A stretch of DNA of 39,650 nt from Catajapyx aquilonaris (lineage: Eukaryota): assembly GCA_000934665.2 (NCBI GenBank), contig JYFJ02003652.1, positions 1 through 39,650 on the forward strand. The letters run 5' to 3'. Each line of letters opens with the position of its first letter. Within the stretch, counting starts at the first letter, position 1. Shown one piece after another: positions 11,796 through 37,252 of the stretch. The notes beneath the pieces are model-generated. The model was given only the letters and a program-made list of their open reading frames with translations, was not told the origin of the DNA and did no database searches. Position numbers and translations under genes: made by a program.

Positions 11796-12506
11796 CTAAT
11801 GGACTAATTTCATGTGGCGGTGCATGGAGCGTTTGTTGTTGAACTGTTTCCCACAAGTGCTGCATTCAAAAGGCTTCTCACCCGAGTGAATTAACATGTG
11901 CTGGTGTAAGGTTCCAGACCGACCAAATCTTTTCCCACAAGTGCTACATTCAAAAGACTTCTCACCAGAGTGAATTAACATGTGAGAGTGTAAGTGTGCT
12001 GACTGAACAAATCTATTGCCACAAATGGTGCAGTGAAATGGTTTCAATCCCTTGTGAATCCGAACATGAAGGTGGTACTGAGAACTTGAAGGAAAACATT
12101 TTTCGCACCATTCGCACTGGAAGGGCCTTTCTCCTGTGTGACTCCTCCTGTGAATAACCACGTAAGACTTCCTAACAAATTTCTTGTCACACATGTCACA
12201 TGAGTAAGGCCTCACACCAAGATGGACATCCTTGCAATGCCTTTGTAACCCCCACTTTGAAGTGTACCTCTTATCACAATCACTGCATGGGTAAGGCCCA
12301 CCATCAGATCTGAGTCTTTCATGGCCAGTCAACTTCTGCTTCACTTGAGTAGTGTGTACTGATCCTGGCTTCTTCTTGTTTTCTGTCTTTTCCCCTGGTT
12401 TCTTTTTCAAGCCCACACACAATTCATCTGCAGTTGTACCATCCATATGGAAGTCTCCAGTGGTTCTCGAAGTATTTGTTTCAGTTGATTGCATATTGCA
12501 GTTACC
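11796..12506 (-). CDS. G2 terminal exon: six C2H2 zinc fingers
   Basis: ORF 11796..12494 has six C-x2-C...H-x3/4-H units with GEKP/GERP-type linkers. The acceptor tttaaaag|GGT at 12506 is conserved in G3 and G4. Confidence 0.95.
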   Translation of the reverse strand, partial: GNCNMQSTETNTSRTTGDFHMDGTTADELCVGLKKKPGEKTENKKKPGSVHTTQVKQKLTGHERLRSDGGPYPCSDCDKRYTSKWGLQRHCKDVHLGVRPYSCDMCDKKFVRKSYVVIHRRSHTGERPFQCEWCEKCFPSSSQYHLHVRIHKGLKPFHCTICGNRFVQSAHLHSHMLIHSGEKSFECSTCGKRFGRSGTLHQHMLIHSGEKPFECSTCGKQFNNKRSMHRHMKLVH

Positions 12507-15500
12507 CTTTTAAAAAACTCCACATTACTACTGAACAAAATTAAACACACACTAGGAAAACCCCTCGCTACACTCGCATTTTCCTAGAAAACCACTCACT
12601 TCGTTTGCTCTTTTCTAGGCCTGCGGCCTGGGGTATCTACTCGCGTACCACATCACCAGGGGAGGGTGTAACGTTAGAACTGCAGCAGTCTTTGAACGGC
12701 ACGATTAGTGAGATATGTCTGTGCTGTGTCTGTCATTCCGAAGAGTGAGACTCTGTCAAAGGACTCTGTAAACAACTTCACAGCAGTGCCAACTGGGCAA
12801 CAGCGCAGAGAAGGAATGGACAGTTTCCCCAGCAACCCAACAGAGGAGTTGTTTACATATCTTTGTACATGAGTAGAAGGCAGGCGAATGGGGAGGTGGC
12901 GGCAACAATATGCGGCGGACCAATCAGAGGGCTTGGTCAAACACCGCAAGGATTTTAATATGATAGATTCTAAACTGTATTAGTGTTGTTCATTGATCCA
13001 ATCATGGCAAGCAAAATCAAAATGGAAATCTGGACCTTCACACCACCACAGCTCAAAGGCAATCTTGAATCAAGTAGGATCAAGTAGGATTTTTTGCCAG
13101 ATTTTTAGACCCAAACTTGTTTTTTGAGTGGAATGTCCCTTTAAGACAGAAAATACTCCCACCGAAACGGTCTCAGGATAATTATGTTCAGGTCTGATCT
13201 GCCAAAATCAGCAGCTCATCTTTGAACAGTGGGACACTCCAATATTATTACAAAACAGGAGCCACATGATGGACAGTTGTAGAATTCATACATTTGCACT
13301 TATTGGGCTCTCTTTCAGTTAAATTTTTCAACTTTCAACTGTGAAGCCATTGCCTTTTAACTATTGGACAGCATTTCCCAAGGTATTTTAGTGAGCGAGT
13401 TCACAATCAGTGTTGACTATGAACACAGCTGATGTTTCATGGGTTGATCTGGTGATCTGGTTTTGCCACATTTTCACCCCTGCAATGCTCATCTTCCTCT
13501 CCCTTCCATTCTCGCCTCAGATATGTGAATCACAAACTGCATTAGGAGTCAGAAGTAACTCACCCTTCCCCTAAAGACAAATAACTGCAACCTTAAATGA
13601 CCCCTAATTAATTTCGCATAGCTTACCTTTTCTCTTGGTTTCTTCCTCTTCCTCTTCAAGAGAGCACATGTCTTGTCATCTGAGCGACTAGGAGGAATGT
13701 ACTCATCCCCAGAGTCACTCAGATCAGATAAGGACTGCTCACTGTAGTCTTTGTCCTCATAAACAGGAACCTGCAACACGAAAAATCAGTGATAATGAGT
13801 ATCTAAATCCACTCAATCCTTTGCTACTGGTGATGGACTAGGGATGTGCATATTAAGTACTTAATGACCCACATAAATTTATATAAATAAAATCCCACAT
13901 AATTACTTATCGTGGCAATAATAATTAGGCTTCGGTGCAGTTTAGCCCCACAAAAATCTTGCATATTTCTGTATATTTTTTGAATAAGCTTCATGAGCGG
14001 AGTCTAAAATGATACTCTTCCTAGTGTGCGGAAATGCTTGGTTCAAAAGTAATTGAATTTTGAAGTTGCAAGTAATAACAATGAATGAAATGAAAGTAAA
14101 CAAGTGTTCCTTTGTTGAAAACTGTCCACTCCCATTGCAGCGGGAGGTGATTCTCCGTGGAAACGTGTGAGTTGCCCCGGCAATGTGCTGTGAGGGATGC
14201 TGAGTGATGTAAATAAATGGTTGTTTGTCTGGAATTGGGCAAGCCAGGGGTTAACCACTCGACTGTAAAGTGTACACTGGAGTACCAAGGAGAACCCAGG
14301 AGTACCAAAGAGTATAAGGTACCTATAATGAGTACCTGGGAGTACCATCGCACTTCAGGTGTACACCAGAGTACTAAGCCTTCCTAGAAATAAGGAGGGT
14401 GGATGGTGTCTCATCGGCCATTGATGCTCGAGGTCTCTTCCACGCCAACAATACTGTTGCAGTAAAATGCATATTAAGCTTTTCGTAAATTACTCAAGGC
14501 ATGCCCCACGCTGATTGTGTTGGTGTTATATGTGTTATATGTTGAAAAATAAATGCAAGTTTAGCTATGCGGCCAAAAAATGTCCTCTTCACTGTTGAAA
14601 ATGGAAACAATTTTTTTTTTTTTTTTCACTCACAGACGCTCGTTTGTTCCTGGTCACCCTTCTGCTTGGGCCAGGAGATGACTCACTGGATGGATCAGAT
14701 GGAGTAGGCGGCATGGGTTCATCCGCATCAGGTTCACATCCACTGGAGACTTCTGAAGCAGCACCCTAGGGCAGTAAAATAATAGTGTGGCCTAAGATAT
14801 CATGATAAAACATTACTTCCAAAGGCCCAATTACACTACCCTCCACCCCCAGAATCCCCCACCCAGGAAGTCAGTCCAACATCTGTCAATTCTGGTTGCT
14901 TTATATTCAAATTGTACTCATGAGATGCAAAAAATACACATATGGCAATCCATCAAAGCAGGTTGTAATGATTAAGGGCAAAGTCGGGAACTAATTCTCT
15001 TTACCACATAAAAAATCAGTCCCAATTTGTTTTGACTCGCCCTGGTATATTGCAATGAATGCGGAAATATTATGGGTTAATCATTGTGGTGAATATATGG
15101 CAATGCTGCCTCACACTAGATAAGTACAATCAATTGGTGCACATGGAAATGTGTCTGAATGAGAGGAAATTCTACCATGACCTGACTCAGCACCAGTAAT
15201 CTATATTCTTTAGCAAGAGCGTTACACTACAAGAAGTACAAAAACCAAGTTACGGGATATCTAATTCCACTCAATCATTCATTACTATGCATATAAGTGG
15301 CGTGTTAATAAGGCTCCATAGTAGTATAAATACCATCACATATTATCTGCTAACACCTATTTATTTGAGGATCATGATTCAAAGCTAAAGTTGACCACTG
15401 GAATATCCATGTGAACGGACAGCCATCCCAGAGCTCCTCTTATCACACTCTTGATAGTTTCCTTTCCAAATAATAATAAAATTTACCCTACCTCAGTATT

Positions 15501-17362
15501 TTGCACGTGCCAGTGTTCTGCTTCCTGATGTGATGAGTCTCCCCTGTCCGGTGTGGATAGTCCAGGAGAATCTTCCGAGAGGACATCGCCAGATGTGAAA
15601 GCTGCTTCTCCACCTGGCAGAAATGTGATGGAAATATGCTATAGGTCTTAAAATATTTACTTTAATCATAAACCCTGCACTCCCAAGAACTTTCACTTGG
15701 ATATTACAGAATGTTGTAAGTTCCATTTACCCTTAACTAAATTGCTTAGGTTTGGGAAATAATACTGCTGTGTTAAGTGGAAGTGTTAAAGTGTACAAGG
15801 CACACAAATTGCCAATGGTAAAACTTCTTGCATCACACTACTATCCGTTTATTTAATGTAGAGCCCTATGTTTGACTCTAAACAACTCCCAGGAAAATTT
15901 GTATTGTTAGAAAGCTTGTTTAAATCCACGTTACATATATGCGAGTAGTTTTCCTATTGTCAGTCTCTAATTTTTTATCGTAAATAGAAGGCGGAAAAGT
16001 GTCATTTTTTGACAAGTTGCCGACATTACACCGCAAAGTGAATTTTTAATTCGATGCAATGCCCTAAACTGGGGTCAGATTGTGCCAGGTGGGGGTGAGT
16101 TGGATATTATGAATGTCTGTTTCTTTGCACACTCGACAGTGTTTTTTTCGCAGTCCTCTGACGATTGTAGGCCCATGATAAGGAATGGAAAAATGTAGGA
16201 CTAGAGGCCGGAGCACACGGAAAACGATATACAGGGGTTGGACAGAATAATAGGGCCATCGATGATGCCTGAGACGTCACTCATTTGACAAGGCAGGCAA
16301 AAGTCTCATTTTCTATAGATTGGGCAGACCCCGGAGTGAAAAGAAAAGGTACCAGGTGGGGGGAACCCTAGAAGGCAAGGAGAGGGTCCAAAGAGAGGTA
16401 GTGGTTGAAGTGTTGGGGGACTGGACTTGTGGTTTGTGGCGGTTGGTGTGAAGGTAAAAGTAGCCGGCAATCAGTTTCGTAGACTGTCACCAGCGGACGC
16501 TACAGTGGTCGTCAACACCAGCGCAACTTGCGAAAATTTGAGTAAGTAGGCCCACTATGCTAGTCTGTTAATTGTGATAATGCCAGACATGCATGAGCAT
16601 GCCCACTTTATATGGATGGGCAACTCAAATGTGATGCACACAATCCAAACGTGAAATGTAGTATTACCATGCAAAAACATTAGGGTCAGTCCTCTACCTC
16701 TGAAGATTTCTTGAGCTGATTGCCCCACTGCAACTTTTGAGATTTAAATTCTGCATTGTTTACAACAGAAGGCTTCAATAAGATATGCATACATAGATTG
16801 TTCATTATGTGAATGACAAACTTCTAGGATACAATCCTAGGCATCAGGGAAAGCAGACTTTGAGTAAAGGTGATATCTGCTCCATGCAATCCTGTTACTG
16901 AAATAATCAAAATGACATAAACACTGCCTTATTCCATATTCTGGATGTCATAGACAGTGAGTAGCCAATTACTTTTCCAGCGCCTAACTTATATTGCCTT
17001 CTAATCCTATTGGGAGAAGTTTGGGAGGCAAATACAATAAAAAATCCTCTGCAAAACAAAATCATACCTGTGTTTCCCAAGCTGTCAACTTCTGCAACTG
17101 AATCTGACTGAATCTCACTCAAGGAGGCAGCAATTTCACTGATGTTTCTCAATGCGCCATCATTTTCTGCTTCTAAGTCTTGATTCTACCATCACAGGGG
17201 ATAATATGAGCATTAGACAAGCAGTTTTTACAACGAAAAATTTGCTATCTGTTGTAACACTGATCAACATGTTGACATATGAACTAAATTAAAATGTTTC
17301 AAAATAAAACTATAAACTACCCGTCCCACCTTCCACCCCCAACCCTGCCCATGTCAGACTAT

Positions 17363-17398
<36 letters not shown>

Positions 17399-17451
17399 AA
17401 TATTATATTATATTATTATGTATTTACTAATAATACTAATAATACTAATAC

Positions 17452-17507
<56 letters not shown>

Positions 17508-20500
17508 GGCAATGGTTACATTCCCTTTGGGGTATATTGCACAGACCTTTATTGACGGTTTCTATGTACAGCATTGTACATCAGAACTTTTGTATGAAGG
17601 GCCCCGGCCCAAGGACAGGGTGACTGGGAGGGGATGTGCAAGGTGCAGTGCAATGTCGTTGCTTTGGTCATTTTGTGAACTCCCCAGTGTGGTTAGTCTA
17701 GCAGAAATCCCACGCGAGGTGAAACCACAGACTATGCAACTCTGCACAAGGTGAAGGGGAGAAATATTGGGCTTGGGATCGAACCCGGGAACAGTACATC
17801 TGTGGGTACATATTTACAATTGTATGTACTGCTGCACCACTCTGCCTCCCCTACAATTATTTCAATACATATATCGTCGCTGTGGAGTCAAAACCGCGTA
17901 ACTCTCTTTTCGGCAGATTTCGGGTTTTTGATTCTGAAAATCGGGCATTTTGCGCTGCATCTGCCATCAAATCGGCGTAATGCTTTGCTCAATAGGAGCG
18001 AAGATATGGGCAGGTTTAAAGATTAAATCTCAATGCAAGTGTAATATTTGTATTCAGTTTTTTAGTGTTCAGCACAGTAACTGTGCTGAACACTAGGTTG
18101 TGCTAGAGGTTGTGCTGGTTTTAAAAATTTGGCTATTTACACCATCATCATCACTGTCATAGCCCTTAAATTCTTCGTCTCTCTATTTCATTTGACCCCC
18201 AGACCAAATGAATTAGACATTTCAACCTCACCCAACTGTCAATTCCTTGTCCTTCATCCTCCACCATCACCTCCTCTGTCTTGCACTGGTCCAATTCAAC
18301 TTTTGTGCAGCCCACAGGCACGGAATGTCCAGTTTCAACATGAGCATTGCCTGAAGTGAGAGCTTCAGGAGGTATGTTGCCTGGAATGTCATCAGGAACT
18401 GAAAAGGGAAAGAGCATTCCAGTCTCTCTGACCCTCAGGAATCTCATTTACTTGGCAAGTACACATGTCCCAAACAGAATAGATATTGACATAATACTAT
18501 AATAACAGACTTTTCCGTCCAACTCATCATCATAAGTCGTAACTACCCCTGGTTTTTCTTCAATACGAGTTGTGAAAAGAACAGCATGGTGGCATAAGCA
18601 TAGTTTTAAAGGGACAGTACACCACAGCCATACAGTTCTACTGCCAGAGTTCAATCTCTGAGTGGAGCAGATAATACTGTATAGTCACATGGGAAGAGCT
18701 ATGAGGACTTCTCTCTGTGCACATTTTCTCTGATTATTCTCATTGCCTCCTACAAGCAAAATTCATCATCATGCTTAACGCTTCAAGGTAAGAACCCTCC
18801 AAGTTAGTCGTAAATAAGACTCTCACGTGACACAGAATCAAGATTCCAGCTCTTTCTGCAACAGCCGTAATCTGAGACGGTTGGAAGCCCTGTTTGTGGG
18901 CACCTCCCCTACAACCCAAAAATGCAAGTCCCCAATTCACCATGTCCTGATCCACACCCTTTGGACCCAACAAATGGCCTAGGGAATATCACAAAATGCG
19001 AAGTTAAAACCCTGAGTATAGGACCTTAACTGTAACACTTTGCCTGCTACATCCAATTCGGTGGCATCTTTAAATTGCAGGGTTACGCCCAAAATTTAAT
19101 CAAAATGATTAGGTAATGCACAGGAATGCATTCAAGCAGGGATATTTTAAACATTACGCTTGAAGATAACGCTCTCATCAGTAAGGAGGGTTAAGTGGCA
19201 AAATGACATCTCTACATGAAGTGACCCTCTGTACCACAGCAGTTCACCCTGGGCGTTTGTCAGTTATGATGTCAATGATGATAAAACCTGTGTGCGTGCC
19301 AACCATACCTGTTTTTGCCAAACTGCCAACTTTGACATCTGAATCCGCCTGAATCGCACACAAGAGGGCAGCAGTTTCACTCATGTTTCTGGCTGTTCTC
19401 TCTTCTTCAGATTCACAGTCTTGATTCTACCATTACAAGGGGAAACACTTTGCTAGTTAACTAACAATATTTTATAATTGCTTTAAACAAACAAAAACTC
19501 TGTAATGAAAAATTTGCCTATCTGTAGTCGCACTGGTCAACATATTAGGTACAGTCAATAAGTTCCCGTCCCTGCAGGCCGGCAGGTGACACGGAGACAG
19601 GTGCTGCTGTGGTTGGCTGTGAGGTACATTAGCAGTCACCAATCTGGCCAAGAGTGAACTCGGTGTGCTGTGTAATAGCTGCGGTACACAGTCGAAAAAT
19701 GTCGTTCACCATATCACGCGCTTCCAAGGCGGATGAACGGGCAGTAACTCAGTTCCTGTGAGCAGAGGGAGCGGGACCGAAGGAGATACATACACGCATG
19801 AGGGCTGTGTATGGAGACACTTTCCAGGCGTACTCGACAGTGAAGGACTGGGTACGCCATTTCCGCAGTGGTCGACAAGGCGCTTGTCCATCAACAGGAT
19901 TGCTGAACAGGCTTGCATCGTTGGAGGCGGTAACAGGTCGGCCTGACCGTGCCATGTCTGACGTGCCTTGTCGACCACTGCGGAAATGGCGTACCCAGTC
20001 CTTCACTGTCGAGTACGCCACGAAAGTGTCTCCATACACAGCCCTCGTGCATGTATGAATCTCCTACGGTCCCGCTCCCTCTCCACACAGGAACTGAATT
20101 ACTGCCTGTTCGTCCGCCTTGGACGCGCGTGATATAGTGAACGACATTTTTCGAATGTGTACCGCAGCTATTACGCAGCACACCGAGTTCACTCTTGGCC
20201 AGATTGGTGACTGCTAATGTACTATATCGCTCAAAAAGATAGAGACGATTGGCATTTGATTCAAGTGCAAGTTGCACTTGAGTCAAATGCAAAATCGTCT
20301 CTATCTTTTTGGGCGATATAGTACCTCACAGCCAACCACAGCAGCACCTGTCTCCGTGTCACCTGCTGGCCTCCAGCCAGCTGGGACGGGAACTTATTGA
20401 CTACACTAATATTTCATTGCACAATGAAATTGGTATGTAAGGAATTTTCATTGGTCATCAACAATGATTTCACTTCCATTGCTAATAATGAAAAATTGAT

Positions 20501-21442
20501 TTAAGCAGCTGGCATTTGGAAATTTCTGCTCTCATCATGACTGTATTGACATTGACACCAGCACCTCTAGAGATAACTGAGTCATTATAATGGTCTTTTA
20601 CAATTAAACCGAATAATACCAGTCAGTTTACACCATGGATTTGTACTACGGTATGTTTATGTTCCAAAAATATGACTCGGTTGCAACATAACATCTCATA
20701 CCCCGTAAATATTTGAGCTCGCAATTTCATTTGACCTAGCCATACCCTATAAATGAGCAATTTCAGTCATCCTCACCCAGCAGTTGATCTCTTGTGGTCC
20801 TTCATTCTCCACCATGACCTCCTCCTGCTCCGTCTTGCACTGGTCCAGCTCAATTTGGATGCTGCCCACAGGCACGGAATCTCCATTTTCAACTTGAGCA
20901 TCAACTGAACAAGTGAGATCTTCAGAAGGTGAGTTGCCTGGATCATCTGCAGCTGAAGAGGTAAAGCGCATTCCAGTCAAACCCTGACTCTCATTCACAT
21001 GTCACCCACAGAGGCATTTAGCCTACATGGGAAATGGTCATTGGGCATGTCGGTATGAGGAGGACAGGTGTTCAGAATGCATTATGAGGGTCCAACTCTT
21101 TTACTATAGGACGTGGGATATTATTATTACGTTTGATCATGGTTCGATTTCAGCTTGAGAGGGTTGGCAGCCCTGATTGGAATATATGCCACCACTTATT
21201 GTCACACAACCACATCACATCATGTCGAAGTCCCCCTTGAACTCACCCCCTTCCTCCTCTTCACTCGTCACTCTGCAGCCCCCACACCAGGCCCACTCCT
21301 TCAGGGCGCCCACACCATCCTCCAGTGCCTCCAGTCTGGACAGGATCAGGTCCAGGTTGTCCAGTCGAGGCAACATAAGCTCCAAGAGACGTTTCGTGGC
21401 CAAGATTGTCTCCATCATCAACTCCAGGTCGACTGGGGCCAT
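11796..21442 (-). CDS. ZnF-family paralog G2, complete 9-exon gene, about 627 aa, 6 C2H2 fingers
   Basis: Exons 21442-21247, 20952-20777, 19426-19309, 18398-18232, 17185-17068, 15613-15492, 14765-14634, 13770-13627 and 12506-11796. Lengths sum to 1884 nt (627 codons plus TAG). Junctions are canonical and phase-compatible, with splice positions conserved in paralogs. Confidence 0.85.
12552..12967 (-). mobile_element. Non-autonomous Helitron related to 1993-4758
   Basis: Minus strand 5' TCTATCATATTAAAATCC...GCCCTCTGATTGGTCCGC and 3' ...GCGAGGGGTTTTCCTAG. Flanked by A and T; absent from the same intron in G3 and G4. Confidence 0.85.
14244..14376. mobile_element. Single terminus of the element family seen at 22804-26613
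   Basis: ccaggggttaaccactcgactgtaaagtgtacactggagtacc matches the reverse complement of 26525-26613; GAGTACC subterminal repeats. Confidence 0.55.
17362..17852 (-). mobile_element. tRNA-derived SINE, family 2, with (ATT)n/(GTT)n tail
   Basis: Reverse-complement similarity to 24370-24786; B box GGTTCGATCC; microsatellite tail at 17362-17506. Confidence 0.8.
19548..20406. mobile_element. Foldback mariner derivative: two inverted copies of the 5' end including transposase HTH coding sequence
   Basis: Inverted arms of about 330 bp with TA flanks. Both arms encode VYGDTFxAYSTVKDWVRHFRSGR, and the spacer continues with RSGRP, typical of the mariner N-terminus. Absent from the equivalent G1 and G3 introns. 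Confidence 0.9.
20222..20321. mobile_element. 100-bp palindromic MITE nested in the right arm of the foldback mariner
   Basis: TA TSD; the left arm supplies the empty site (gctaatgTAcctcac). Confidence 0.85.
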
Positions 21443-21536
21443 GATGGCTCGTTCCCCTATCGAGACTCCTCTGCGACTCCCTCGATTCGAAAAGTGACGA
21501 CCTGTGACCAGACCAACAAACGTGTCTCGAAGCTGC

Positions 21537-22075: not shown

Positions 22076-22836
22076 ATGCTCTGTGAATGCTCTTGTGAAG
22101 CTTTTTCTGTTGCTAAAAAGCATCACAAGAACATTGTCCAGGCTGGCACTGTTGCATTTCCTCATGAATATTCTCGCACAATTCGTATCAACTGCCTCCA
22201 TTTCGCATACGAGGTGTGATCAAAAAGTTCCCGGACTGTCGATATACCGTGCAATCCAGTGGAGGTACGAACTTGTGACGTTAGGGGGCGCTAGGTGCGC
22301 CTGTCAGCTATCAGTCTGAAAAATGTCGTCTTCATAGGTGCACATGTTTCCGAGTTTCGGCAGTTTTCTTGACACCATCTTCTTGTGCTTCTGCGATTTT
22401 TCGAAATCACTGATATGTTAGGGAGCAAAAGATTCGTATTAAATTTTGCCTCCAGCTCAACAAAACTTCGGATGCAACCAACCAAATGCTGAACAAGGCT
22501 ATTGATGAGCAAGTTGTAAGACATGCAATAACATATGTGGGTTAACAGCTTCGAAGGTGGCGCGTCAAGTGTGCAGCAAAATCAACTCAATGCTGATCAT
22601 TTTCTTTGACATTTTAGGAATTGTGCATATGGAGTTTCTTCCTCCTGGTAAAACTGTCAACGGCAAGTATTACTGCGATCGTTTGAGACGATTTAGGCTC
22701 AAATGGCCGGAGATGTGGAAGAACATAGACTGGTTGCTGCACCATGACAATGCAGCCTGCACACACCTCACGCGTAGTCAGGGACTTCCTGACAAAAAAC
22801 AACCAAGGGGGTAATCTACACCCATACATTTTCTGC

Positions 22837-23642: not shown

Positions 23643-24122
23643 CGGTGTTGAGCCATGTTGGGGTTGGAACAACCACTCTTGTGACCTTCCAGTCCAACAG
23701 CCAGGCACAGAATGGATAGTTGATGGCGATGTAAACAACCAGAACACCCAGGAAGACTCTATCTCACCAGGGGGTGCTTGTTGACAGATGTCTCCTAGGC
23801 GACGGTGTTGAGCCATGATGGGGTTGGAACAACCACTCTTGTGACCTTCCAGTCCAACAGCCAGGCACAGAATGGATTGCTGATGGCGATGTAAACAACC
23901 AGAACACCCAGGAAGACTCCATCTCACCAGGAGGTGCTTGTTGACAGATGTCTCCTAGGCGACGGTGTTGAGCCATGATGGGGTTGGAACAACCACTCTT
24001 GTGACCTTCCAGTCCAACAGCCAGGCACAGAATGGATTGCTGATGGCGATGTAAACAACCAGAACACCCAGGAAGACTCTATCTCACCAGGGGGTGCTTG
24101 TTGACAGATGTCTCCTAGGCGA
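23643..24122. repeat. Three near-identical 160-bp tandem units
   Basis: Units start at 23643, 23803 and 23963 and differ at only a few positions. Confidence 0.95.
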
Positions 24123-24369
24123 CAATACCAGAAAACCAGAAAAACCAGAAAAGTGTGTTCATGGGATATATAATAATTATAGTACAAGTTGTAGTCAAAC
24201 TCCATATTCGACATTAGCCTACATTACATGGGAAAAAGAAATAGGATGAGAAGTAATTTTAAAACTCAGAAAAAAAAACTTGCTTTGTTGCACTTTTACT
24301 GTGGTGGAATCTGATTCTAACAAAAAAAAGGTGACACAAGCAGTAGTGATAGGCAATTAGGCATACTGA

Positions 24370-24730
24370 CAGGGGAGGCGGAGTGGTGCTGCGGTAATGT
24401 ATGCGCCCACGGATGTTAAGGTCCCAGGTTCGATCCCAGCCCGGGGACACCCCCTTCATCTCGTGCAGAGTTCAGGGTCACCTCTGGCTTCGTCTCGGGT
24501 GGTATTTCCACAGACTAAACCACCCGGGGGAGTTCACTAAAAATGGCCACAGCGTCAGATGCACTGCACCTTGCACATCCCCTCCTGTCATCCTGCCCGT
24601 GGGCCCGGGCTGTAATTAAATAGGCACCACGTACTGAACAACTCAAAATACAATAAAGGTCCATGCGATATACCCGGGAAGGAGTGAAAGCATTACCCAC
24701 AAAATATTCTTCTTCTTCTTCTTCTTCTTC

Positions 24731-24786
<56 letters not shown>
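24370..24786 (+). mobile_element. tRNA-derived SINE, family 2, with (CTT)n(ATT)n tail
   Basis: A-box-like GGCGGAGTGG and B box GGTTCGATCC; related to 17362-17852. Confidence 0.85.
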
Positions 24787-26000
24787 GTGTTAGAACTAGT
24801 GGGGGTTTCTCTGACTGGTTTAACATTAGTGTTGGGGTTAAGCAGGGTTGTGTCATGTCTCCCTGGTTATTTAACTTGTACTTAGATGCATGTGTAAGGG
24901 AAGCTATGGTTGAAGGTGTAGGAGTGCAGTTTGGGGATGAGTTAGTTAGTCACTTGCTGTATGCAGATGATTCTGCCCTTCTGGCGGAGAGTGAGGCTGA
25001 TTTACAGTTGATCCTATGCAAGTTAGATAATGTTTGTGAAAAGAGGGGTATGAGGATTAATGTAGATAAGACTAAGGTATTGGTATTTGAGAGGGGACAG
25101 CAGGTTTCTCCTTGTACGTTGCAGGTACGAGGAAAACTGGTTGAGCAGGTCAGCCAGTTTGTATACCTGGGTAGTGTCCTTGAGAGTAATGGTAGAATAA
25201 TTGATGGGGAGATTGACAGGAGAGTTAGTTCTGGGTTGAAAGTAATAGGTGCCACAAGTAGGTTTTCTAGAAATAAGGACTTATCTTCTGCCTGTAGGTT
25301 GTCTGTCTATTCTCACGTTATTGTTCCTTCACTTATGTGTGGTAGTGAAGCGTGGGATTGGTCAGATAGGCTTAAGAGTAGGGTGTTGGCTACAGAGATG
25401 CGTTATCTCCGGGCTGTTTGTGGGGTTACCAAGTTCGATAGGATTAGGAATGAGGAGATTTTGGAGAGGTGTAATGTTAAGGAGACTGTTAAAGATAAGG
25501 TGTGTAGGTCTACTCTAAGGTGGTTTGGCCATGTGGAGAGGATGAAGGAGGAGGAGATTGTGAAGAAGGTTTATTTGGGTGTCAGAGTAGTTGGTAAGAG
25601 GGGCAAGGGTAGGCCTAGGAAGACATGGTTGGACCAGGAGGGTCAGTGTCTTAAGGGTGCTGCTAGTGTTAAGCCGAGACGTTCTTGTGTCAATAGGACC
25701 ATGGACGTGGCTGAGGCTAGGGTTGTTTGTTTGGATAGGTGTAAATGGCGTAGGTTAATTAATGGGTAAATAGGTAAATACGTCTGAGGATAAGGTGATG
25801 TCTGAGGTGGGCAGGGGTGGGGGGTGGGACGGGTTGTTTTTAGGTTTATTCTCATGAGTTTTATTAGTTTATTGTTGGGTTAGCTTGCGTCTCCCTTCAT
25901 CGCTGACTACCCCTCACAGGGAAATGTCGTGATGTTGTTGTTGTTGTTATTATTATTATTCTTCTTCTTCTTATTATTATTCTTATTATTCTTATTATTA
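24787..26000 (+). mobile_element. 5'-truncated RTE-clade LINE (C-terminal reverse transcriptase ORF 24787-25769, 3' UTR, (GTT)n tail)
   Basis: GVKQGCVMSPWLFN, LLYADD, YLGS, LRWFGHVERM and GRPRKTW motifs typical of RTE/BovB ORFs. The frame is open throughout. Confidence 0.95.
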
Positions 26001-27640: not shown

Positions 27641-28297
27641 TCATTTTCTCTTCATGTGCAACTTTATGCCTTGCCTATGCACTAATTTCATATGGGTATG
27701 CATCTTACCTTTTCGGTTGAAATTTTTCCCACAAGTGCTACATTCAAAAGGCTTCTCACCTGAGTGAATTAACATGTGCTGGTGTAAGTGTGCTGACCGA
27801 CCAAATCTTTTCCCACAAGTGATGCATTCAAAATGCTTCTCACCAGAGTGAATTAACATGTGCCGGTGTAAGTGTCCTCTACGAACAAATCTTTTGCCAC
27901 AAATCGTGCAATGGAATGGTTTCAATCCTGTGTGACTCCTCCTGTGAAGAACCATGTGAAACTTACAAACAAATTTCTTGTCACACATATCACATGAGTA
28001 AGGCCTAACACCAAGATGGACATCCTTGCAATGCCTTTGTAACCCCCACTTTGAAGTGTACCTCTTATCACAATCACTGCATGGGTAAGGTCCACCATCA
28101 GATCTGAGTCTTTCATGGCCAGTCAACTTCTGCTTTACTTGAGTGTGGACTGATCCTGGCTTCTTCTTGTTTGCTGTCTTTTCCCTTGGTTTCTTTTTCA
28201 AGCCCACACACAAATTATCTGAAGTTGCATCATTCCTATGGAAGTCTCCAGTGGTTCTCGAAGTATTTGTTTCAGCTGATTGCATATTGCAGTTACT
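27641..28297 (-). CDS. G3 terminal exon: five C2H2 fingers (frame open; third finger of G2/G4 deleted in frame)
   Basis: ORF 27641..28339. HRRSHTG joins directly to LKPFHC, so the 28-aa finger present in G2 and G4 is missing. Confidence 0.85.
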   Translation of the reverse strand, partial: SNCNMQSAETNTSRTTGDFHRNDATSDNLCVGLKKKPREKTANKKKPGSVHTQVKQKLTGHERLRSDGGPYPCSDCDKRYTSKWGLQRHCKDVHLGVRPYSCDMCDKKFVCKFHMVLHRRSHTGLKPFHCTICGKRFVRRGHLHRHMLIHSGEKHFECITCGKRFGRSAHLHQHMLIHSGEKPFECSTCGKNFNRKGKMHTHMKLVHRQGIKLHMKRK

Positions 28298-28437
28298 CTT
28301 TAAAAAAAATTCAACATTACTACTGCACGAATTAAACACACCATCAAAAAGGTTTTAGTGTTGTTCAATGATCCAATCTTGAACAGCGGTACACTCTCAA
28401 TTCCAAGATAGGAGTCACATGATGGACAGGCAATAAA

Positions 28438-28988
28438 GGACCTCATGCATTAAGCATACTAAAAAGGATCCCAAAATTGATTTCTTCGTGTTTCGGATAT
28501 GTTGTTGGGGGTGACGAGTAGGCCCCGTGTGCAAAAGGAGCAGCCTCGATTGGCCGGGGTTTGGCTTGTAGGCCGGTCAAGTGACCTAGCCTTTTAAAAA
28601 TCACCACGCCCAAACGACTTTGATTATTTAAGAAATTATTTTTGGCATGGAGGTATATCTAGCCTAGTACTATCTAACTCTACGATAGAATTCTATCTAG
28701 CTCATCTCTGATTGGCCGAAATAGACAACTAATGAATAACAAGTGACCTTTTTACCAATTTAAAGCTGACCGCCCAACATGACGTATACCTTATTTGACA
28801 GCTCCAAAGAAGTTTTACGCCATATTAAAAAATCAGACAATTCTATCCGTGGACACTACCCTTATAATTCACACAAATGTACTACTGTTGTACATTTGTG
28901 TGAATTATAAGCCACCCCCAACAACATATCCGAAACATGAAGAAATCAATTTCGGGATCCTTTTTAGTATGCTTAATGCATGAGGTCC
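28438..28988. mobile_element. MITE with about 75-bp TIRs
   Basis: GGACCTCATGCATTAAGCATACTAAAAAGGATCCC inverted at both ends, flanked by AAA; absent from G2 and G4. Superfamily uncertain. Confidence 0.85.
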
Positions 28989-30095
28989 AAAGCACTTGGG
29001 CTCTCAATCAGTTAAATTTTTCAACTTTCAACTGTGAAGCCATTGGCTTTTAACTATTGGTCAGCATTTGCGAATGGATTTTAGTACATAGTGAGCTAGT
29101 TCACAATCAATAGTGTTCACTATGAACACAGCTGATGACGTTTTATGGGTTTATCTGGCGGTTATCTGGTTTTGCCACATTTTCACATATATGTAATGCT
29201 CATCTTCCTCTCCCTCCCACTCTCGCCTCATAAATATGTGAATCACGAACTGCCTTAGGAGTCAGAAATAACATACCCTTCCCCTAAAGACAAATTGCAA
29301 CCTCAAATGGCCCCTAATTAATTTGGCAACACCTACCTTCCCTCTTCGATTCTTCCTCTTCCGCTTCAATACAGCACAGGTCTTATCATCTGAGTGACTT
29401 GCAGGAATATACTCATCCCCCGAGTCACTAAGATCAGAAAAGGACTGCTCACTGTCCTCTTTGTCCTCATAAACAGGAGCCTGCAACATGTAGAATCAAT
29501 CATAGAGAGGATCTAAATCCACACAATCCTATGCTACCATACTGTCCATCCTGTAGCCCTGTCAGGCATTGTACGTCGCCCATGCATGATAATTTTAGTT
29601 AAAGAGGATCGCTAGCGGAGCTAGGCCCTTATTGGGAGTTTTGAATTCTCAATATTTACCGCACTGTCTGTCTTGTGGAGCCGCAGGCCAATGAACGTTT
29701 GCCACATCCACATCACGCAACACCCACATCTACTCCGCCACAAGGCGAACAGTAATGCTGGGAACACACAACCCCCAAATTACTTGTAAAATTGCCATGT
29801 ACTACATTGCATTCCCTCAAGAATGGGAGTAACTGTTTCAACAAAGGAACAGCTAGTTGTTTATTTTCATTTATTGATTGTTATTACTTGCAATTTCAAA
29901 ATTCAATTCCTCTTGAACCAAACATTTCCGAACACTAGGAATCAGGACCGGCGCAACACACTTAGCGCGCTAAGCATGGCACGGGCGCGCCGAAGAAAAA
30001 TGGAAAGCCACTGCGCCAGGCGTAGAGCACTGCATATTTACTTCTGAAAGTTAACCTGCAATGTTAATTTATGTCATGATGATTGAAAACACAGA

Positions 30096-30371
30096 ACCGA
30101 AGCAGGTTGGCATAGTGGATAAGGCGTCCGACTGCTAATCGGGAGGTCCTGGGTTCGAATCCCGGGGCCGACAACTCTGACCGTGGTTTTCTGTGGTTTC
30201 CCACGGTCCTTCCAGGGAATTTCCGGAGTTGCTTCCGTAATTAATAGGCCACAGCCGCTTCCTTCCGTCCCTATCCTATCCCAAAGAGCACTGTAAAATG
30301 AAAAAGCAAAGAGAGTTCCAGGCAAAACAAACTTCCCCCCTAAAGAGCCGATGGCTCATAACGGGATATGA

Positions 30372-30437
<66 letters not shown>
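30096..30437 (+). mobile_element. tRNA-derived SINE, family 1, long (ATT)n tail
   Basis: Close to 5158-5452; 14-bp TSD ATTGAAAACACAGA. Confidence 0.95.
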
Positions 30438-30440
<3 letters not shown>

Positions 30441-30481
30441 GAAAACACAGACTGAGTGAACCTGGAGTACTTGTACTATCA

Positions 30482-30590
30482 GTCCAACAAGAATTGTCGC
30501 AGCGGCAGCGCACGAACTACAATCTAAGAGCACAGGGACACGAGAGACTGTAGTTCGTGCGCTGCCGCTGCGACAATATTCTTGTTGGAC
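30482..30590. repeat. Short palindromic (MITE-like) hairpin
   Basis: gtccaacaagaattgtcgcagcggcagcgcacgaactaca and its inverted copy. Confidence 0.7.
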
Positions 30591-31136
30591 ACCAGGTACA
30601 TCAGAAATGCATTTGTAAGTATAGAGAGTGTAGGCTGTCGTAAAACATGAGGGTGCCGAATTTCAGGCTTNGGGGGGGGGGGGGGGCTGGAAACTCCAGA
30701 ACTGGTCCTGCTAGGAATAGTGTCTTTCGACTCAGCTCATCAACTAGATTCAGTAAATATAAGAAACCAGAAAGACTTTCGTGGGGCTAAACTGCACCCT
30801 TAGTAATACAATATGTCCTGCAGTTCCCCTGATCCAATTATGTGACTTCCTGTCACACTCTTCTGATGAACAATATGCCGTACTTACAGTGCGGAAAATG
30901 AAACAGCCATCTGACTTCATCAAGGTTTCCATGGTAATACCCTAACAGGACAATATGAGTATACAGCAGCCACAAAAAGCAACACTACTGTAAGAATGGA
31001 TGACATCAGATCGTTGCTTGGTTTTCCACACCGTACATAGTTTTCAAGTTCTATAACGGAAATATTTCACGGCTGGGAACAATGAAGCATACGTTTATGT
31101 CTTATGTAAATGGTAGTACACAAACTTGGCAATGTA

Positions 31137-31301
31137 CTGCCGTCAGATGTAAGAAGACAGTAACTCAAAAACCAGTAGGGGTGAAAGTCGCATGCATGCC
31201 CTGCACTCATCCCCTCTGAGTCAGGGGGATTAGTGCAGGGCATGCATGGGATTTTCACCCTTACTAGTATATGAGTTATGGTCTTCTGACATCCGACGGC
31301 A
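31137..31301. mobile_element. Small palindromic MITE
   Basis: TIR CTGCCGTC(A/G)GATGT.AGAAGAC; absent from the homologous G1 intron at about 5750. Confidence 0.7.
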
Positions 31302-31594
31302 GCATAGGCCTATATCTCGTAAATTATTGGCAAAATAGAATAGATCACTAATATTTTAATATTTAAAAAAGAATGCAAGTTTCGGAAAGTAGCCAAAAAA
31401 TGTCGTCCTCACTGTTGAAAATGGAAAACATTTACTTTTTCTCAACATAACATTACTCACAGATGCTCTTTTGTTCCTGGGCAAGGAGATGGCTCACTTG
31501 ATGGGTCAGCTGCAGCAGATGGCATGGATTCATCCCCATCAGGTTCAGTGCCACTTTAGACTTCTGAAGCAGCACCCTAGGGCAGTACATAATA

Positions 31595-32229
31595 GCAACA
31601 AACTTTTGGTGGCAGCGTACGGATACGCGAAGGCACAACCAGTTCAAAGATCTGTCCCAATAGGTTGGCGCAGGGATGTCAATAAGCTGTTACCCCCAGG
31701 TATCTATACGTAAATGCTTAACTCCAACCCAAGTGAGGTGCTCACTTACTTGACAGATTTTTACGCCAAGCAAGAAGAGGAACTTTTGGCATACAATATT
31801 TCCTACGTCCCATACTCCGCAGCCAAATCTCTAACCTACCCGGAACTCTATTGGTCTTATAATCTCCCACTAAACCCACTGCGCACTTGGATTCGATTGC
31901 GTGGTTTACCAAAAGTTTTCTGGTTTCAAAACTACAAGTTTTCATTTGACGGCGAACCATGTGTGTGGTGTAATACGGCCTCCGAATTTGACCACTTTCA
32001 TCTTCTTTTTGACTGTCCTTTTTTTTGTACCCCTCGCTCTCTACACCTGGCAGACTTACCCCGTATGCCGCCTGACAAACTAGCTTTTGTGTTCAATAAC
32101 CCCTCAAAAAGACTGTTATTAGATATGCATTATTTTTTCTGTGAATGTCAAAAAAAGTGTGTATAATGACTGTATATTTGGTTGTGGTGTCCCCCTTAAA
32201 GGGTTAGCTCTAACCCTATAGTCGGGGTA

Positions 32230-32264
<35 letters not shown>

Positions 32265-32265
32265 A
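31595..32265 (+). mobile_element. 3' fragment of a non-LTR retrotransposon
   Basis: ORF 31714..32166 has a C-x2-C...H-x4-C knuckle (CVWC...HLLFDC) followed by a (TAAA)n tail. It replaces intron sequence seen in G1 and G2. Confidence 0.75.
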
Positions 32266-33829
32266 TATGCAATTCGGAAGAAAAAGATGGGATTATAAAC
32301 TAGTTTTTTGGCACTTAGGGCGTCAGACATGTCCCTCTTCAATATATATTATCTACTGAGACTAATAGTTGTGGATCATGATTCAATGCTACAACTGACC
32401 AATGCACTATCCATACGGAGGGACAGCCATTCCACAGATCCCGTATCATACTTGATAGTTTCCTTTCAAATATAATGAAATTTCTCCTACCTCAATATTT
32501 TGCAAATTCGAGTGTTCTGCTTCCTGCTGTGAGTCTCCCCTGTCCAGTGTGGATGGTCCAGGAGAATCTTCTGAGAGGACATCTCTGGAAGTGGACGCTG
32601 CTTCTCCATCTGCAGAAATGTGATGGAAATGTACTCTAATTCTTAAAATGTATGAGTTATAAATAAGAGGAGATATCCTAAACCCTGCACTCCCAAGAAC
32701 CTTCACTAGGATATTACAGAATGTTGTAAATATACTTAGGCTGAGTTCATACTAGGCGTTTTCGTCGCCCGACAAGTCGCTGAAAACAGAACACATGCAA
32801 AAGTACGGAGCACGACACACCATGACTACTTTCCTGCTTGGTTGCCGCCAAATGCAGCATGTTGCATTTTTGCTGCCGTGACTGAATGTACAGCCGGAAA
32901 CAGAACACATGGTTACCAGTACGCGCAGACACACCAGGCGATAAAATCGCGTGAAAAGTGAGCTGTGGGGAGTGGACTCGGGTTGCAGGGCTGCAGGGCT
33001 GCAGGGGAAGCATACTGGCATCTGGGACTAGCCTGAAGCCACTATGGTGTTTAAAGCCAATCTTTTATAGAAACTGTAGGTTTTACAGGGTCCTTTTTAT
33101 GGAAAAAAAATTCGTTTTTTAGTACTTTTTCGTCTATTTTTGCGGAACAGTGTAAGGGCTTTAAAAAAAATCGTTTAGCGTAATTGGCTCTTTAGAGACC
33201 CTACAATCAAGGAATAATAGTAGAACTTTCCTACGCAACCCTAGTACATGTGTGCAAAAGCCTAATCTTGGGTAAAATCGCGTTATTTCGTATTTTTGGT
33301 GATTTGACTTTTCGATTCCTGGGCTTTAAAATAAGTTTTTCAGTCAAATAATGGAAAATCTGGTGGGCATCACAATAATTATATTCTACCTGTGTTTGCC
33401 ATACTGCCATCCTCTGTGTCTGAATCAGATTGAATCTCACTCAAGTGGGCAGCAATTTCAATGCTGTTTGTGGATGATCCGGTTTCTGCTTCCAAGTCCT
33501 GATTCTACCATCACAGAGGAAAAAGTATTACTCTTCAGCTAACAATATTTCACATCTGCATAAGTAAACATTGTTCATTTGGCTTCAACAGTCTTGATTC
33601 TACCATTATATTATAGGAAAGGACATTACCATTATTAAGGTTAAACAAAAACTCTGGATTGAAAAATGTCATCTGTAGCAACACTGGTCAGCTTAATATT
33701 TCATTGCACAATGAAATTGTTATGTAAGTAATTTTCATTGGTCATCAGCAATCATTATTTCACAACCACTGCTAATAATGGAAAATTGACTTTACACAGA
33801 CACTGGCATTTGCAAATTTCTGCTCTCGA

Positions 33830-33962
33830 TGGTTTTGGTTTTTGGTCGCGTTGATGCTGCGGACCAATCATGACTCATGTAAACAAGCGCAACCCATTGT
33901 TTACAGCTTGTTTACATGGGTCATGATTGGTCCGCGGCGTCAACGCAACCAAAAACCAAAAT
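33830..33962. mobile_element. Palindromic MITE remnant
   Basis: Inverted arms ttttggtttttggtcgcgttga...gtaaacaagc; absent from the G1 and G2 introns. Confidence 0.6.
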
Positions 33963-34249
33963 CTTCGAAGGCCTGTGTGTATGGTCCTTTAACCAGATTG
34001 ATACAGACACCTGCACCTCCTTAGAGATGATAGGTCTTTTACAATGAAACCAAGTAAAGGTGGGTTTAATGTGAACGATTTGACTAGCGAAGTCTTCCCT
34101 GAGCAATAGCATCACTGAGTAACCCAAGTAACCGGTATTGTTTGAGGCGAAAATCTATTGTCACTTTCACCTCATACAATATTGGTTACTCGGCTTACTC
34201 AGCGATGTTAACGCTAGGCGATGACATCGTCCATCAAAGCGCTCGCAGT

Positions 34250-34413
34250 TACAGTGCGGAAGCCGAAATTGTGATCTGACGTCACCAAGGTTTCCATGAA
34301 AATACTCTTACTTAACTATATGCTACTGTTTACTCATATATGAGTAGACAGTAGCAACAAAAAGGAACACTGTAAGAAAGATGACATCATATCGTAATTT
34401 GGCTTTCCGCACT
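34250..34413. mobile_element. Old small MITE (related copies at about 5511-5659 and 30886-31034)
   Basis: Ends AGTGCGGAA / TTCCGCACT; shared body caaggtttccatg...tatgagta.acag...atgacatca.atc. Confidence 0.6.
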
Positions 34414-35349
34414 TTAGTTTACAGCATGGATATGTACTATGTTTATGTTCCTAAATATGACTCGGTTGCACCATAACGTCTCATACCCCTTAGATATTTC
34501 ATATTTGAGCTCGCAAATTCATTTGACCTAGCCATTCCCTATGAACGAGTAACTTCAGTCATTCTCACCCAGCAGTTGATCTCTTGTGGTCCTTCATTCT
34601 CCGCTATGACCTCCTCCTCCTCCTCCACCTGGTCCAGCTCAGTTTCGATGCTGTCCACAGGCACAGATTCTCCATTTTCAACTTGAGCATCAACTGAACA
34701 AGTGAGATCTTCAGAAGGTGAGTTCCCTGGATCATCTGCAGCTGAAGAGGTAAAGCACATTCCAGTCAAACCCTGACTCTCAGTCAGCACTCTCGTTCAC
34801 ATGTCACCCACAGAGGGCTTTTACATGGGATATATGGGAATGGTTGGTCATGGAGCATGTCAGCATGGGAAGGTCAGGTATGTTCAGAGAGCAACATGAC
34901 GGTCCAACTTTTTCACTATGGCGAGAGGTATACCCTGTAGCTCGTTAGGGAATAATTACATGTGATTTTAATTTGAGAGGGTTGGCAGCCCTGATTGGAA
35001 AGCGACCACGTCTTGTCTTACAACAACAGCGCCTCATGTCGAAATCCCCCTTTTAAAAAATGCACGTCCCCCTTCAACTCACCCTCTTCCTCCTCTTCAC
35101 TTATTCTGCAGCCACCACACCAGGCCCTTGCACCAGGCCCACTCCTTCAGGGCGCCCACGCCATCCTCCAGTGCCTCCAGTCGAGGCAAGATCAGCTCCA
35201 GGAGACGCTTCACGGTCAAGACTGTCTCCATCATCAGCTCCAGGTCCACGGGGGCCATGATGGCTCCCACCCCTTTCGACTCCTCTCTGCAACCCTGTTC
35301 CACCCACAATCCGGACCAACAAACGTCCACGAAACGTCTCAAGCAGGAC

Positions 35350-35382
35350 TCAAGAAGAGAAAATTCTCGCAACGGACGCCAT
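35350..35382 (-). promoter_or_regulatory. Candidate uORF MASVARIFSS* upstream of G3 start
   Basis: Differs from G1 only by synonymous TCT/TCC and AGG/AGA. Confidence 0.5.
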
Positions 35383-36376
35383 GTTGGATTCAGGGGTGGT
35401 GGGGGAGAATATCGCGTAGCTGTTGGGGTCAAGGAACAGCTACTGTTAAGAACTAATATGGAACGGATAGCTCTGAATGGAAAGATGCTATTTCCTCATT
35501 CTCCCCCATGTGTTATCACTTATCAATAATTCTTAATGCTCGGTGTAATGCTTCCGTGGCACCTTTTTTTGTAGCTAAAAAGCATCACAAGATCATTTTT
35601 CAGGCTGGAATACTGTTGCATTTCCTCATGAAATAAATTCTCTCGCCATTCATATCAACTGTCTCCTTTTTGCATGCGCTGCAGAAAAATTCATATTCGC
35701 AAAATTATTATGATTGTACAGCGTAAACGAATAGAGAGTGAAACTCACAGTCAGTGCGACATTGAGAGCTTTATTTATCCCACAATACATTTTCTATGCT
35801 ATGACCGAAATTTATTATTGTTGGGTTGTGCTGTGGAATAAAGAGATTCTACACTAGTTAAAACAACATGAATTGAACAGATACAACCAAATGTCATCAG
35901 GTGCAATAAATGGATTTTCTCAGTAGGTACAGTTGCATGAGCACTGCCACATTGCCATGATAATTTTCAACAAACCTTTCAACCTTTTCATATAACCTGC
36001 ATAGCAATGTAGCAGCAAAGGAAGCAACAAACAGGAGGCAACAACTCTGCCAATGCGGTGTGCATATTTCCCTCCACTTATGTATGGCAATCTCTGCAGT
36101 CTCAAATCGCCCTGCAAACATCTCCATTAGCCTACCATAACACTTGCAACTGAATAACTATCTGGCTTTAATTACAAATCACCAGACTGACATATCAGTC
36201 CTGATGATATTGAACCAAATTAGTGCTGCTAGTTAAGAATTTGGTGAATAATGAGACTGCCTTAAATCCAATGCCCAGATGTGTGATGAATCACGCAAGA
36301 ATTCCCACAAAGTTTGAAGCAATCTTGGCATTTTTTAAAAGGGCATTATTTCTTCACTTGCAACTTGATGCTTTGC

Positions 36377-37252
36377 CTAATGCATTAATTTCATATGGCG
36401 TTGCAAGTAAGCTTTCTGGTTGAAATTTTTCCCACAAGTGCTACATTGAAAAGGCTTCTCACCTGAGTGAATTAACATATGCCGGTGCATGTCTCGTGAG
36501 TGACGAAATCTTTTCCCACAAGTGCTACATTGAAAAGGCTTCTCACCTGAGTGAATTAACATGTGCTGGTGTAAGGTTCCTGACAATGAAAATCTTTTCC
36601 CACAAGTGCTACATTCAAAAGGCTTCTCACCAGAGTGAATTAACATGTGCTGGTGTAAGTGTCCTGACCGACCAAATCTCTTGCCACAAGTGCTACATTC
36701 AAAAGGCTTCTCACCTGAGTGAAGTAACATGTGCCGGCGTAAGGTTCCTGACCGACCAAATCTTTTCCCACAAGTGGTGCAGTGAAATGGTTTCAATCCT
36801 TTGTGAATCCGAACATGACGGTGGTAAACAGAACTTGAAGAAAAACATTTTTCACACCATTTGCACTTGAATGGCCTTTCTCCTGTGTGACTCCTCCTGT
36901 GAACAACCATGTGAGACTTCCCAGCAAATTTCTTGTCACACATGTCACATGAGTAAGGCCTCACACCAAGATGGACATCCTTGAAATGCCTTTGTAAAGC
37001 CCCCTTTGTAGTATACCGCTTATCACAATCACTGCATGGGTAAGGCCCACCATCAGATCTGGGTCTTTCATGACTAGTCAACTTCTGCTTCACTTGAGTG
37101 TGTACTGATCCTGACTTCTTCTTGTTAGCTGTCTTTTCCCTTGCTTTCTTTTTCAAGCCCACACACAAATCATCTGAAGATGCAGCATCCATATGGAAGT
37201 CTCCAGTGGTTCTCGATGTATTTGTTTCAGCTGATTGCACATTGCAGTTGCC
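36377..37252 (-). CDS. G4 terminal exon: eight C2H2 zinc fingers
   Basis: ORF 36377..37240 has eight C2H2 units. Fingers 4-8 form a near-identical 84-nt tandem repeat. Confidence 0.95.
   Translation of the reverse strand, partial: GNCNVQSAETNTSRTTGDFHMDAASSDDLCVGLKKKAREKTANKKKSGSVHTQVKQKLTSHERPRSDGGPYPCSDCDKRYTTKGALQRHFKDVHLGVRPYSCDMCDKKFAGKSHMVVHRRSHTGERPFKCKWCEKCFSSSSVYHRHVRIHKGLKPFHCTTCGKRFGRSGTLRRHMLLHSGEKPFECSTCGKRFGRSGHLHQHMLIHSGEKPFECSTCGKRFSLSGTLHQHMLIHSGEKPFQCSTCGKRFRHSRDMHRHMLIHSGEKPFQCSTCGKNFNQKAYLQRHMKLMH

Follow-up and report, generated by a model that had tools for sequence, protein, structure and literature searches.

We report that three young tandem paralogs encoding zinc fingers, here named G2, G3, and G4, kept the finger fold while the residues that contact DNA diversified, and that positive selection for altered DNA specificity is the probable driver. 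They lie in a 39,650-nucleotide stretch of the Catajapyx aquilonaris genome (contig JYFJ02003652.1), the whole of which is referred to as the window. Amino-acid change among the three copies is concentrated at positions -1, +2, +3, and +6 of the recognition helix, the nonsynonymous divergence of these codons exceeds both synonymous and intron divergence, and the anatomy of the genes can be followed through the conservation between paralogs. For the vertebrate KRAB-ZNFs, it is textbook knowledge that tandem paralogs change fast at their contact residues. The phenomenon is already known, and the present cluster is a taxonomically somewhat unexpected case of it with an orphan N-terminal region.

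The base composition of the window was approximately 37-46% G+C. C2H2 arrays were located by a stop-to-stop open reading frame (ORF) search and a regular expression for fingers, and they were found at only three sites, every one on the minus strand. The last exon of G2 (11796..12506) encodes a basic N-terminal part of 71 residues followed by six fingers (F1, F2, F3, Fa, Fb, and FL) and the stop codon. In G3, the last exon (27641..28297) carries five fingers; F3 was lost in frame (TGERP..KGLKP became TGLKP), and a 1-nt deletion at the usual stop codon extends the protein by 14 residues. The last exon of G4 (36377..37252) carries eight fingers (F1, F2, F3, Fa, Fb, Fc, Fd, and FL), and the interval 11796..37252 runs from the G2 stop codon to the G4 splice acceptor. 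All of the 19 fingers fit the expression C-X2-C-X12-H-X3-4-H with canonical spacing and keep the aromatic and hydrophobic residues of the core. The Cys and first-His columns are without any variation, and the linkers are TGEKP-like (SGEKP, TGERP, KGLKP, and LGVRP). The finger exons of G2, G3, and G4 scored 93, 66, and 136 bits, respectively, with PF00096 (zf-C2H2; cut-off 25.2) and 113, 97, and 174 bits with PF13465 (cut-off 40). The closest solved structures by sequence were the DNA-bound arrays of ZNF568, CTCF, Aart, and PRDM9. The encoded protein is a canonical poly-C2H2 protein, predicted from its sequence similarity to these arrays to bind DNA specifically through helix positions -1, 2, 3, and 6.

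To number the helix, the pattern C-X2-C-X3-F/Y-X-[-1][+1][+2][+3][+4][+5][+6]-H was used. Under this standard numbering, all 12 of the four-residue contact strings given by the sequence-only reading, an earlier description of the same DNA, were exact. The contacts (-1/2/3/6) of the last finger are N-R-S-R in G2, R-G-K-T in G3, and Q-A-Y-R in G4; those of finger 2 are R-S-Y-I, C-F-H-L, and G-S-H-V; and those of the first repeat finger are Q-A-H-S, R-G-H-R, and R-G-T-R, in the same order. In finger 1, S-W-G-R is common to G2 and G3 because the finger 1 stretch is near-identical in both copies, and G4 has T-G-A-R. The sequence-only reading had proposed that the divergence of the paralogs is concentrated at the contact positions, and this was confirmed by column counts, Fisher tests, and a ranking of position sets. 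Variable columns made up 19 of 24 at the contact positions, compared to 5 of 18 at the other helix positions (+1, +4, and +5; p = 0.0015) and 16 of 123 in the scaffold and linker (p = 2.5e-10), with 21 of 141 for all non-contact columns together. The earlier description of scaffold and linker as nearly invariant is fair, given that 107 of the 123 columns are constant. Pairwise, the amino acids differed at 13/20 (G2-G3), 16/24 (G2-G4), and 12/20 (G3-G4) contact codons versus 8/117, 17/141, and 15/117 of the remaining finger codons (Fisher p = 2e-8, 5e-8, and 1.5e-5, respectively). Furthermore, when all 10,626 four-position sets from the 24 finger positions were ranked, the set of -1, +2, +3, and +6 stood at the top, and it alone reached 19 variable columns or 41 pairwise differences.

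The rates of substitution were then compared in the three sequences, which all come from one genome. By the Nei-Gojobori method, the nonsynonymous divergence (dN) of the contact codons was 0.70 for G2-G3, 0.65 for G2-G4, and 0.48 for G3-G4, and their synonymous divergence (dS) was 0.28, 0.19, and 0.26, respectively. For the non-contact finger codons, dN was 0.043, 0.055, and 0.061, and dS was 0.29, 0.20, and 0.29. The dN/dS ratios were accordingly 2.5, 3.4, and 1.9 at contact codons versus 0.15, 0.27, and 0.21 at other finger codons. The dS pooled over the exons was 0.20, 0.16, and 0.24. The divergence of the introns (K) was 0.095-0.106 in BLAST-aligned blocks of 303-418 nt, and when the first 450 nt were aligned globally, the raw proportion of differences came to 0.118-0.194. 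The result named beforehand as speaking against selection was a contact nonsynonymous rate that does not exceed the synonymous rate or that of the introns; instead, the contact dN of 0.48-0.70 lay above contact dS, exon dS, and intron divergence alike. Within the eight repeat-type fingers, the mean pairwise dN/dS was 3.3 at contact codons versus 0.35 elsewhere. Among the changes that could be assigned to a branch, the ratio of nonsynonymous to synonymous changes (N:S) was 24:4 at contact codons versus 21:19 at non-contact codons (p = 0.005), and the nonsynonymous contact changes came from all three branches (10, 8, and 6).

A codon model of the GY94 type with F3x4 frequencies was fitted on the three-taxon tree, the site classes being set a priori. 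The omega was 3.4 for contact codons, 0.26 for other finger codons, and 0.37 for the N-terminal part. When the contact omega was fixed at 1, the fit was worse by 9.4 log-likelihood units (likelihood-ratio test [LRT] statistic 18.7, p = 1.5e-5). The model was also fitted to subsets of finger codons only, which are the more conservative comparison because finger codons have the highest synonymous rate. In these subsets, the contact omega was 2.3 for all fingers (p = 0.005), 2.9 without Fa and Fb (p = 0.005), 2.1 without FL (p = 0.027), 3.0 for F1-F3 only (p = 0.023), and 3.2 for G2 versus G4 only (p = 0.003).

The observations that weigh against selection concern the power of these tests, the state of G3, and the exchange between copies. 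As for the tests, the codon models were run with our own scripts and not with PAML. The contact codons alone (24 N and 4 S) are too few to establish an omega above 1 by themselves; their own four synonymous events have no power, and the significance comes from borrowing the synonymous rate of codons nearby. At many contact codons, two or three bases differ, and such changes are over-rewarded by single-step codon models. Moreover, a blind site-class test on the three sequences, analogous to M1a versus M2a and of the random-sites kind that the sequence-only reading had proposed, was not significant (LRT statistic 3.98, p = 0.14), with a class of 4.8% of sites at an omega of 5.7. The proposal that the contact codons are under selection therefore received a divided answer: the fixed-partition tests supported it (omega 2.1-3.4, p from 1.5e-5 to 0.03), but the random-sites test did not. 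Even in the latter, contact codons took 7 of the 10 and 14 of the 25 top-ranked places, though they account for only 24 of all 235 codons. The blind test is underpowered with three sequences.

A rival explanation is relaxed constraint only, in which the contacts drift at an omega of about 1 while the fold is kept, and an omega above 1 is sampling noise of three short sequences. Besides the p value of 0.14 in the random-sites test, it is favoured by the small size of the contact class, which has just about 15-20 synonymous sites per comparison, and by the weakest pair, G3-G4, which reached only p = 0.045. However, a contact omega of 1 was rejected in six of six partitions (p from 1.5e-5 to 0.027), and the contact dN amounted to two to six times the intron divergence. 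Against it also stands the omega of 0.39 at the other helix positions (+1, +4, and +5). We consider relaxed constraint by itself unlikely.

The second group of points comes from G3. In its exon 1, a 13-nt tandem duplication shifts the frame and brings a stop codon ahead of the splice donor, whereas the G1 and G2 copies of this exon are open (G1 being a further copy described below). Together with the loss of finger 3 and the 1-nt deletion at the stop codon, G3 has three structural lesions, and a dead G3 copy gathering random changes might be thought to drive the whole pattern. The sequence-only reading had likewise allowed that the G3 changes may partly be neutral decay. In the finger exon, this was not borne out: the non-contact changes on the G3 branch were 7 N to 8 S, compared to 82% nonsynonymous under neutrality (P = 0.002), and two of the seven nonsynonymous changes merely mark the point where finger 3 was lost in frame. 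The zinc ligands of G3 are all intact. Of the 24 nonsynonymous contact changes that could be assigned, only 8 fell on the G3 branch, and random change would not favour positions -1, 2, 3, and 6. Furthermore, the contact omega of 3.2 (p = 0.003) was obtained from G2 and G4 without G3, which contradicts decay as the main cause. Pseudogene decay is thus a very improbable source of the pattern. The finger exon of G3 still shows purifying selection, and G3 is most likely either a recently disabled copy or a copy with an assembly error in exon 1.

The third group of points concerns exchange. The three copies form mosaics of one another. In the last part of the intron, G3 goes with G4 at all 13 discriminating sites, and in the 3' flank at 27 of 31, but in finger 1 it goes with G2 at 7 of 7 discriminating sites (7 of 8 variable sites). 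Finger Fa of G4 is chimeric, with an Fa-like 5' end and an Fb/Fc-like helix. Its helix shares 18 of 21 bases with G2 Fb and 17 of 21 with G4 Fc, compared to 13 of 21 and 15 of 21 with its positional counterparts, G2 Fa and G3 Fa. In addition, the +3 codons CAC and ACC (His and Thr) of Fa and Fb have changed places between G2 and G4. Some of the apparent substitutions must therefore be copied cassettes, and the difference seen in the first repeat finger is partly exchange between fingers and not new substitution. The fingers are also arranged in tandem repeat arrays with an 84-bp unit, of 2.1, 2.2, and 4.4 copies, the last in G4 (36423-36794), and the number of fingers among the paralogs is 6, 5, and 8.

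From these observations, it could be argued that gene conversion or unequal exchange merely copied ready-made recognition helices from other fingers or family members, so that no selected point substitutions are needed. Since the scaffolds are near-identical, only the helix would look changed under such cassette shuffling. Nevertheless, F1-F3 and FL have no look-alike helix in the window, yet the contact omega was 2.9-3.0 in the subsets without Fa and Fb and with F1-F3 only (p = 0.005 and 0.023). The proportion of synonymous differences at contact codons (pS) was 0.17-0.23 versus 0.18-0.24 in other finger codons; contact synonymous divergence is not elevated, which argues against the import of helices from much older donors. 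Shuffling also leaves the origin of the helix diversity unexplained. We regard it as the less probable account of the excess, though not a negligible one, and infer that selection, not cassette import, lies behind the contact excess. A three-taxon tree has one topology, so exchange among G2, G3, and G4 does not mislead the codon model; import from paralogs outside the window could do so. The selection reading is supported by tests with classes set a priori but rests on three mosaic sequences.

Selection for altered specificity suggests the following course of events. A six-exon poly-C2H2 gene would have been duplicated in tandem, and recently, as the synonymous divergence of about 0.2 indicates. 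After duplication, the zinc-binding scaffold and the linkers were presumably held by purifying selection while the base-reading residues at -1, +2, +3, and +6 were replaced at two to four times the neutral rate. Unequal exchange within the 84-bp repeat probably altered the length of the arrays to six, five, and eight fingers, and the copies probably traded segments among themselves as well. The most likely driver would be positive and diversifying selection towards a changed DNA specificity, as in the vertebrate KRAB-ZNF and fish FiNZ-ZNF clusters. The DNA targets would then be expected to differ between the copies, with transposable elements as the usual suspects.

The finger exons are parts of multi-exon tandem duplicates, as found by self-BLAST and three-way alignments. 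The exon models rest on conservation between paralogs, on GT/AG sites, and on agreement of reading phase, from which splicing was deduced; the predicted order of the six exons is exon 1, exon 2, C, B, A, and the finger exon. All of them lie on the minus strand. The coding part of exon 1, with the start codon and a leucine-rich stretch, is located at 21247..21442 in G2, and its copies are at 9371-9539 in G1 and 35083..35258 in G3, the latter with the 13-nt duplication at approximately 35128-35140. The acidic exon 2 is located at 20777..20952 in G2, 34569-34741 in G3, and 8885-9057 in G1. The acidic exon C, of phase 0 to 1, is located at 19308..19426 in G2, 33389-33504 in G3, and 7609-7727 in G1, and the acidic exon B at 15492..15613 in G2, approximately 32491-32609 in G3, and approximately 7146-7264 in G1. 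Exon A of G2 (13627..13770) is acidic and serine-rich, ends on a basic run (KRKRKK), and has AG/GT bounds and a phase of 0 to 0; alignment among the copies placed exon A of G3 at 29337..29480 and that of G4 at 39188..39325. The dN/dS of exon A between copies was 0.23-0.52. The resulting G2 model runs from 21442 to 11796 with an open reading frame throughout and encodes about 488 residues. The G4 exons upstream of exon A fall past the end of the window.

The window also holds the upstream exons of a fourth gene copy, G1 (9539-7146), in which exons 1, 2, C, and B are intact. Neither an exon A nor a finger exon of G1 was found within the window, and G1 is either a truncated copy or one that a very long intron interrupts. 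Between the 3' end of G2 and the first exon of G1, at 10446-10682 (minus strand), lie the decayed remains of a zinc-finger sequence, which contain several stop codons. An additional, diverged exon-2-like copy with approximately 74% identity lies at 18157-18438 (minus strand), in the G2 intron between exons C and B. Exon 2 itself had a dS of only 0.06-0.11 among the copies and a dN/dS near 1, whereas the adjoining exon 1 had a dS of 0.32-0.35, suggesting a patchy recent homogenisation. Transposon debris was found in the cluster at 24657-25769 (plus strand), 19749-20063 (minus strand), and 22509-22814 (plus strand), comprising a reverse-transcriptase ORF (RVT_1, E = 2e-15) and pieces of mariner-type transposase (HTH_48 and Transposase_1). 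A tandem repeat with three copies of a 160-bp unit (97% matches) occupies 23643-24123. The last intron of G4 contains an inverted repeat pair of 420 bp with 91% identity (37628-38045 and 38234-38661), which is possibly a foldback insertion or one resembling a miniature inverted-repeat transposable element.

The family of the upstream part was then sought. When exons 1, 2, C, B, and A were scanned singly, no Pfam family was matched at its curated cut-off, including KRAB (PF01352), ZAD (PF07776), BTB, SCAN, and PR/SET, although an exon-by-exon scan could miss a domain that straddles an exon junction. Two sub-threshold rows (E = 0.06-0.11) were neither KRAB nor another zinc-finger accessory domain, and exon 1 holds one C-X2-C only, while the ZAD has two Cys pairs. 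The AlphaFold2 model of exon 1 is a helical hairpin whose helices span residues 6-22 and 30-52 (predicted local distance difference test score, pLDDT, 73.6). When this model was compared to the PDB with Foldseek, nothing matched at E<=0.001, and the top score in the ESM Atlas, 0.84, was uninformative. In searches against longer proteins, exon 1 yielded 189 candidates, none at E<=0.01, and residues 1-100 of the G2 last exon yielded 20, none at E<=0.001. Of 8000 candidates for the G4 finger exon, 6294 proteins scored E<=0.001; the best 120 of these were generic poly-ZNFs with 32-54% identity, and no close family member was among them. In a search of 1.84 billion representatives, long multi-finger proteins dominated, and nearly all of the 150 matches listed cover the finger part only. 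The N-terminal half is an orphan, made up of the predicted hairpin, the acidic exons, and a basic run resembling a nuclear-localisation signal. The exon 1 hairpin is a candidate dimerisation or effector module in the place of KRAB or ZAD.

The cluster can be compared with several known systems. PRDM9 arrays are 84-bp minisatellites, and the cluster resembles PRDM9 in that its finger repeat of 84 bp is minisatellite-like, its copy number varies, and its contact residues are hypervariable; the closest solved sequences also include PRDM9 arrays. However, no PR/SET or KRAB-like domain was found on the upstream exons here, and the variation is between paralogs and not between alleles. Emerson and Thomas (2009, PMC2604467) showed positive selection focused on positions -1, 3, and 6 of the helix, with a contribution from 1 and 2, among poly-ZF paralogs specific to the lineages of human, mouse, cow, chicken, frog, fugu, and zebrafish, and they advise caution for chicken owing to gene conversion. 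They also found that the finger number varies among paralogs. The tandem lineage-specific paralogs, kept scaffold and linker, and varying finger number of the tetrapod KRAB-ZNF clusters (PMC2604467) are all shared by the present cluster, as is the focus of change on the contact residues, for which selection is the probable cause here. Unlike them, it has neither KRAB nor another Pfam domain on the five upstream exons scanned singly, carries only five to eight fingers, and resides in an arthropod-like genome.

In the FiNZ-ZNFs of zebrafish, positive selection at contact residues has been demonstrated by Wells et al. (2023, PMC10547256). As presented there, these cyprinid fish genes are a lineage-restricted poly-ZNF family with its own conserved N-terminal sequence, and young FiNZ clades have an omega above 1 enriched at base-contacting residues, a pattern that the fixed-partition tests support in the cluster studied here. 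The N-terminal sequences of the two families are unrelated, however, and the family here is represented by three finger exons plus the upstream exons of G1 in the window. The ZAD-ZNFs of insects, as described by Kasinathan et al. (2020, PMC7655104), are tandemly arranged C2H2 families of arthropods whose proteins combine a protein-interaction module at the N-terminus with a disordered linker and, at the C-terminus, an array of fingers; the present genes resemble this architecture. No ZAD was matched on the upstream exons here, and the signal lies in the contact residues, whereas positive selection in the Drosophila ZAD-ZNFs is reported there as not primarily in the C2H2 domains but mainly outside them. 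The largest fly and mosquito poly-ZF expansions are entered as N/S, with no significant signal, in Table 2 of Emerson and Thomas (2009, PMC2604467). A literature search turned up nothing on selection at contact residues in the ZNFs of arthropods other than insects, which is weak evidence of absence.

Since these arthropod papers are negative or point elsewhere, an arthropod-like example would matter. A clean case without a known accessory domain would extend the pattern to a wider range of taxa, and the pair of G2 and G4 offers a small, tractable set for the study of specificity divergence and targets. More speculatively, and with considerable doubt, the cluster might belong to an arthropod-lineage poly-ZNF family in which an orphan helical N-terminal module replaces KRAB, ZAD, or FiNZ, and which is engaged in an arms race in the style of the KRAB-ZNFs, probably versus transposable elements; it would then represent a convergent origin of a fast-evolving ZNF repressor system. 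If this is true, such a system would have arisen independently in a phylum whose tested insect families gave no contact-residue selection.

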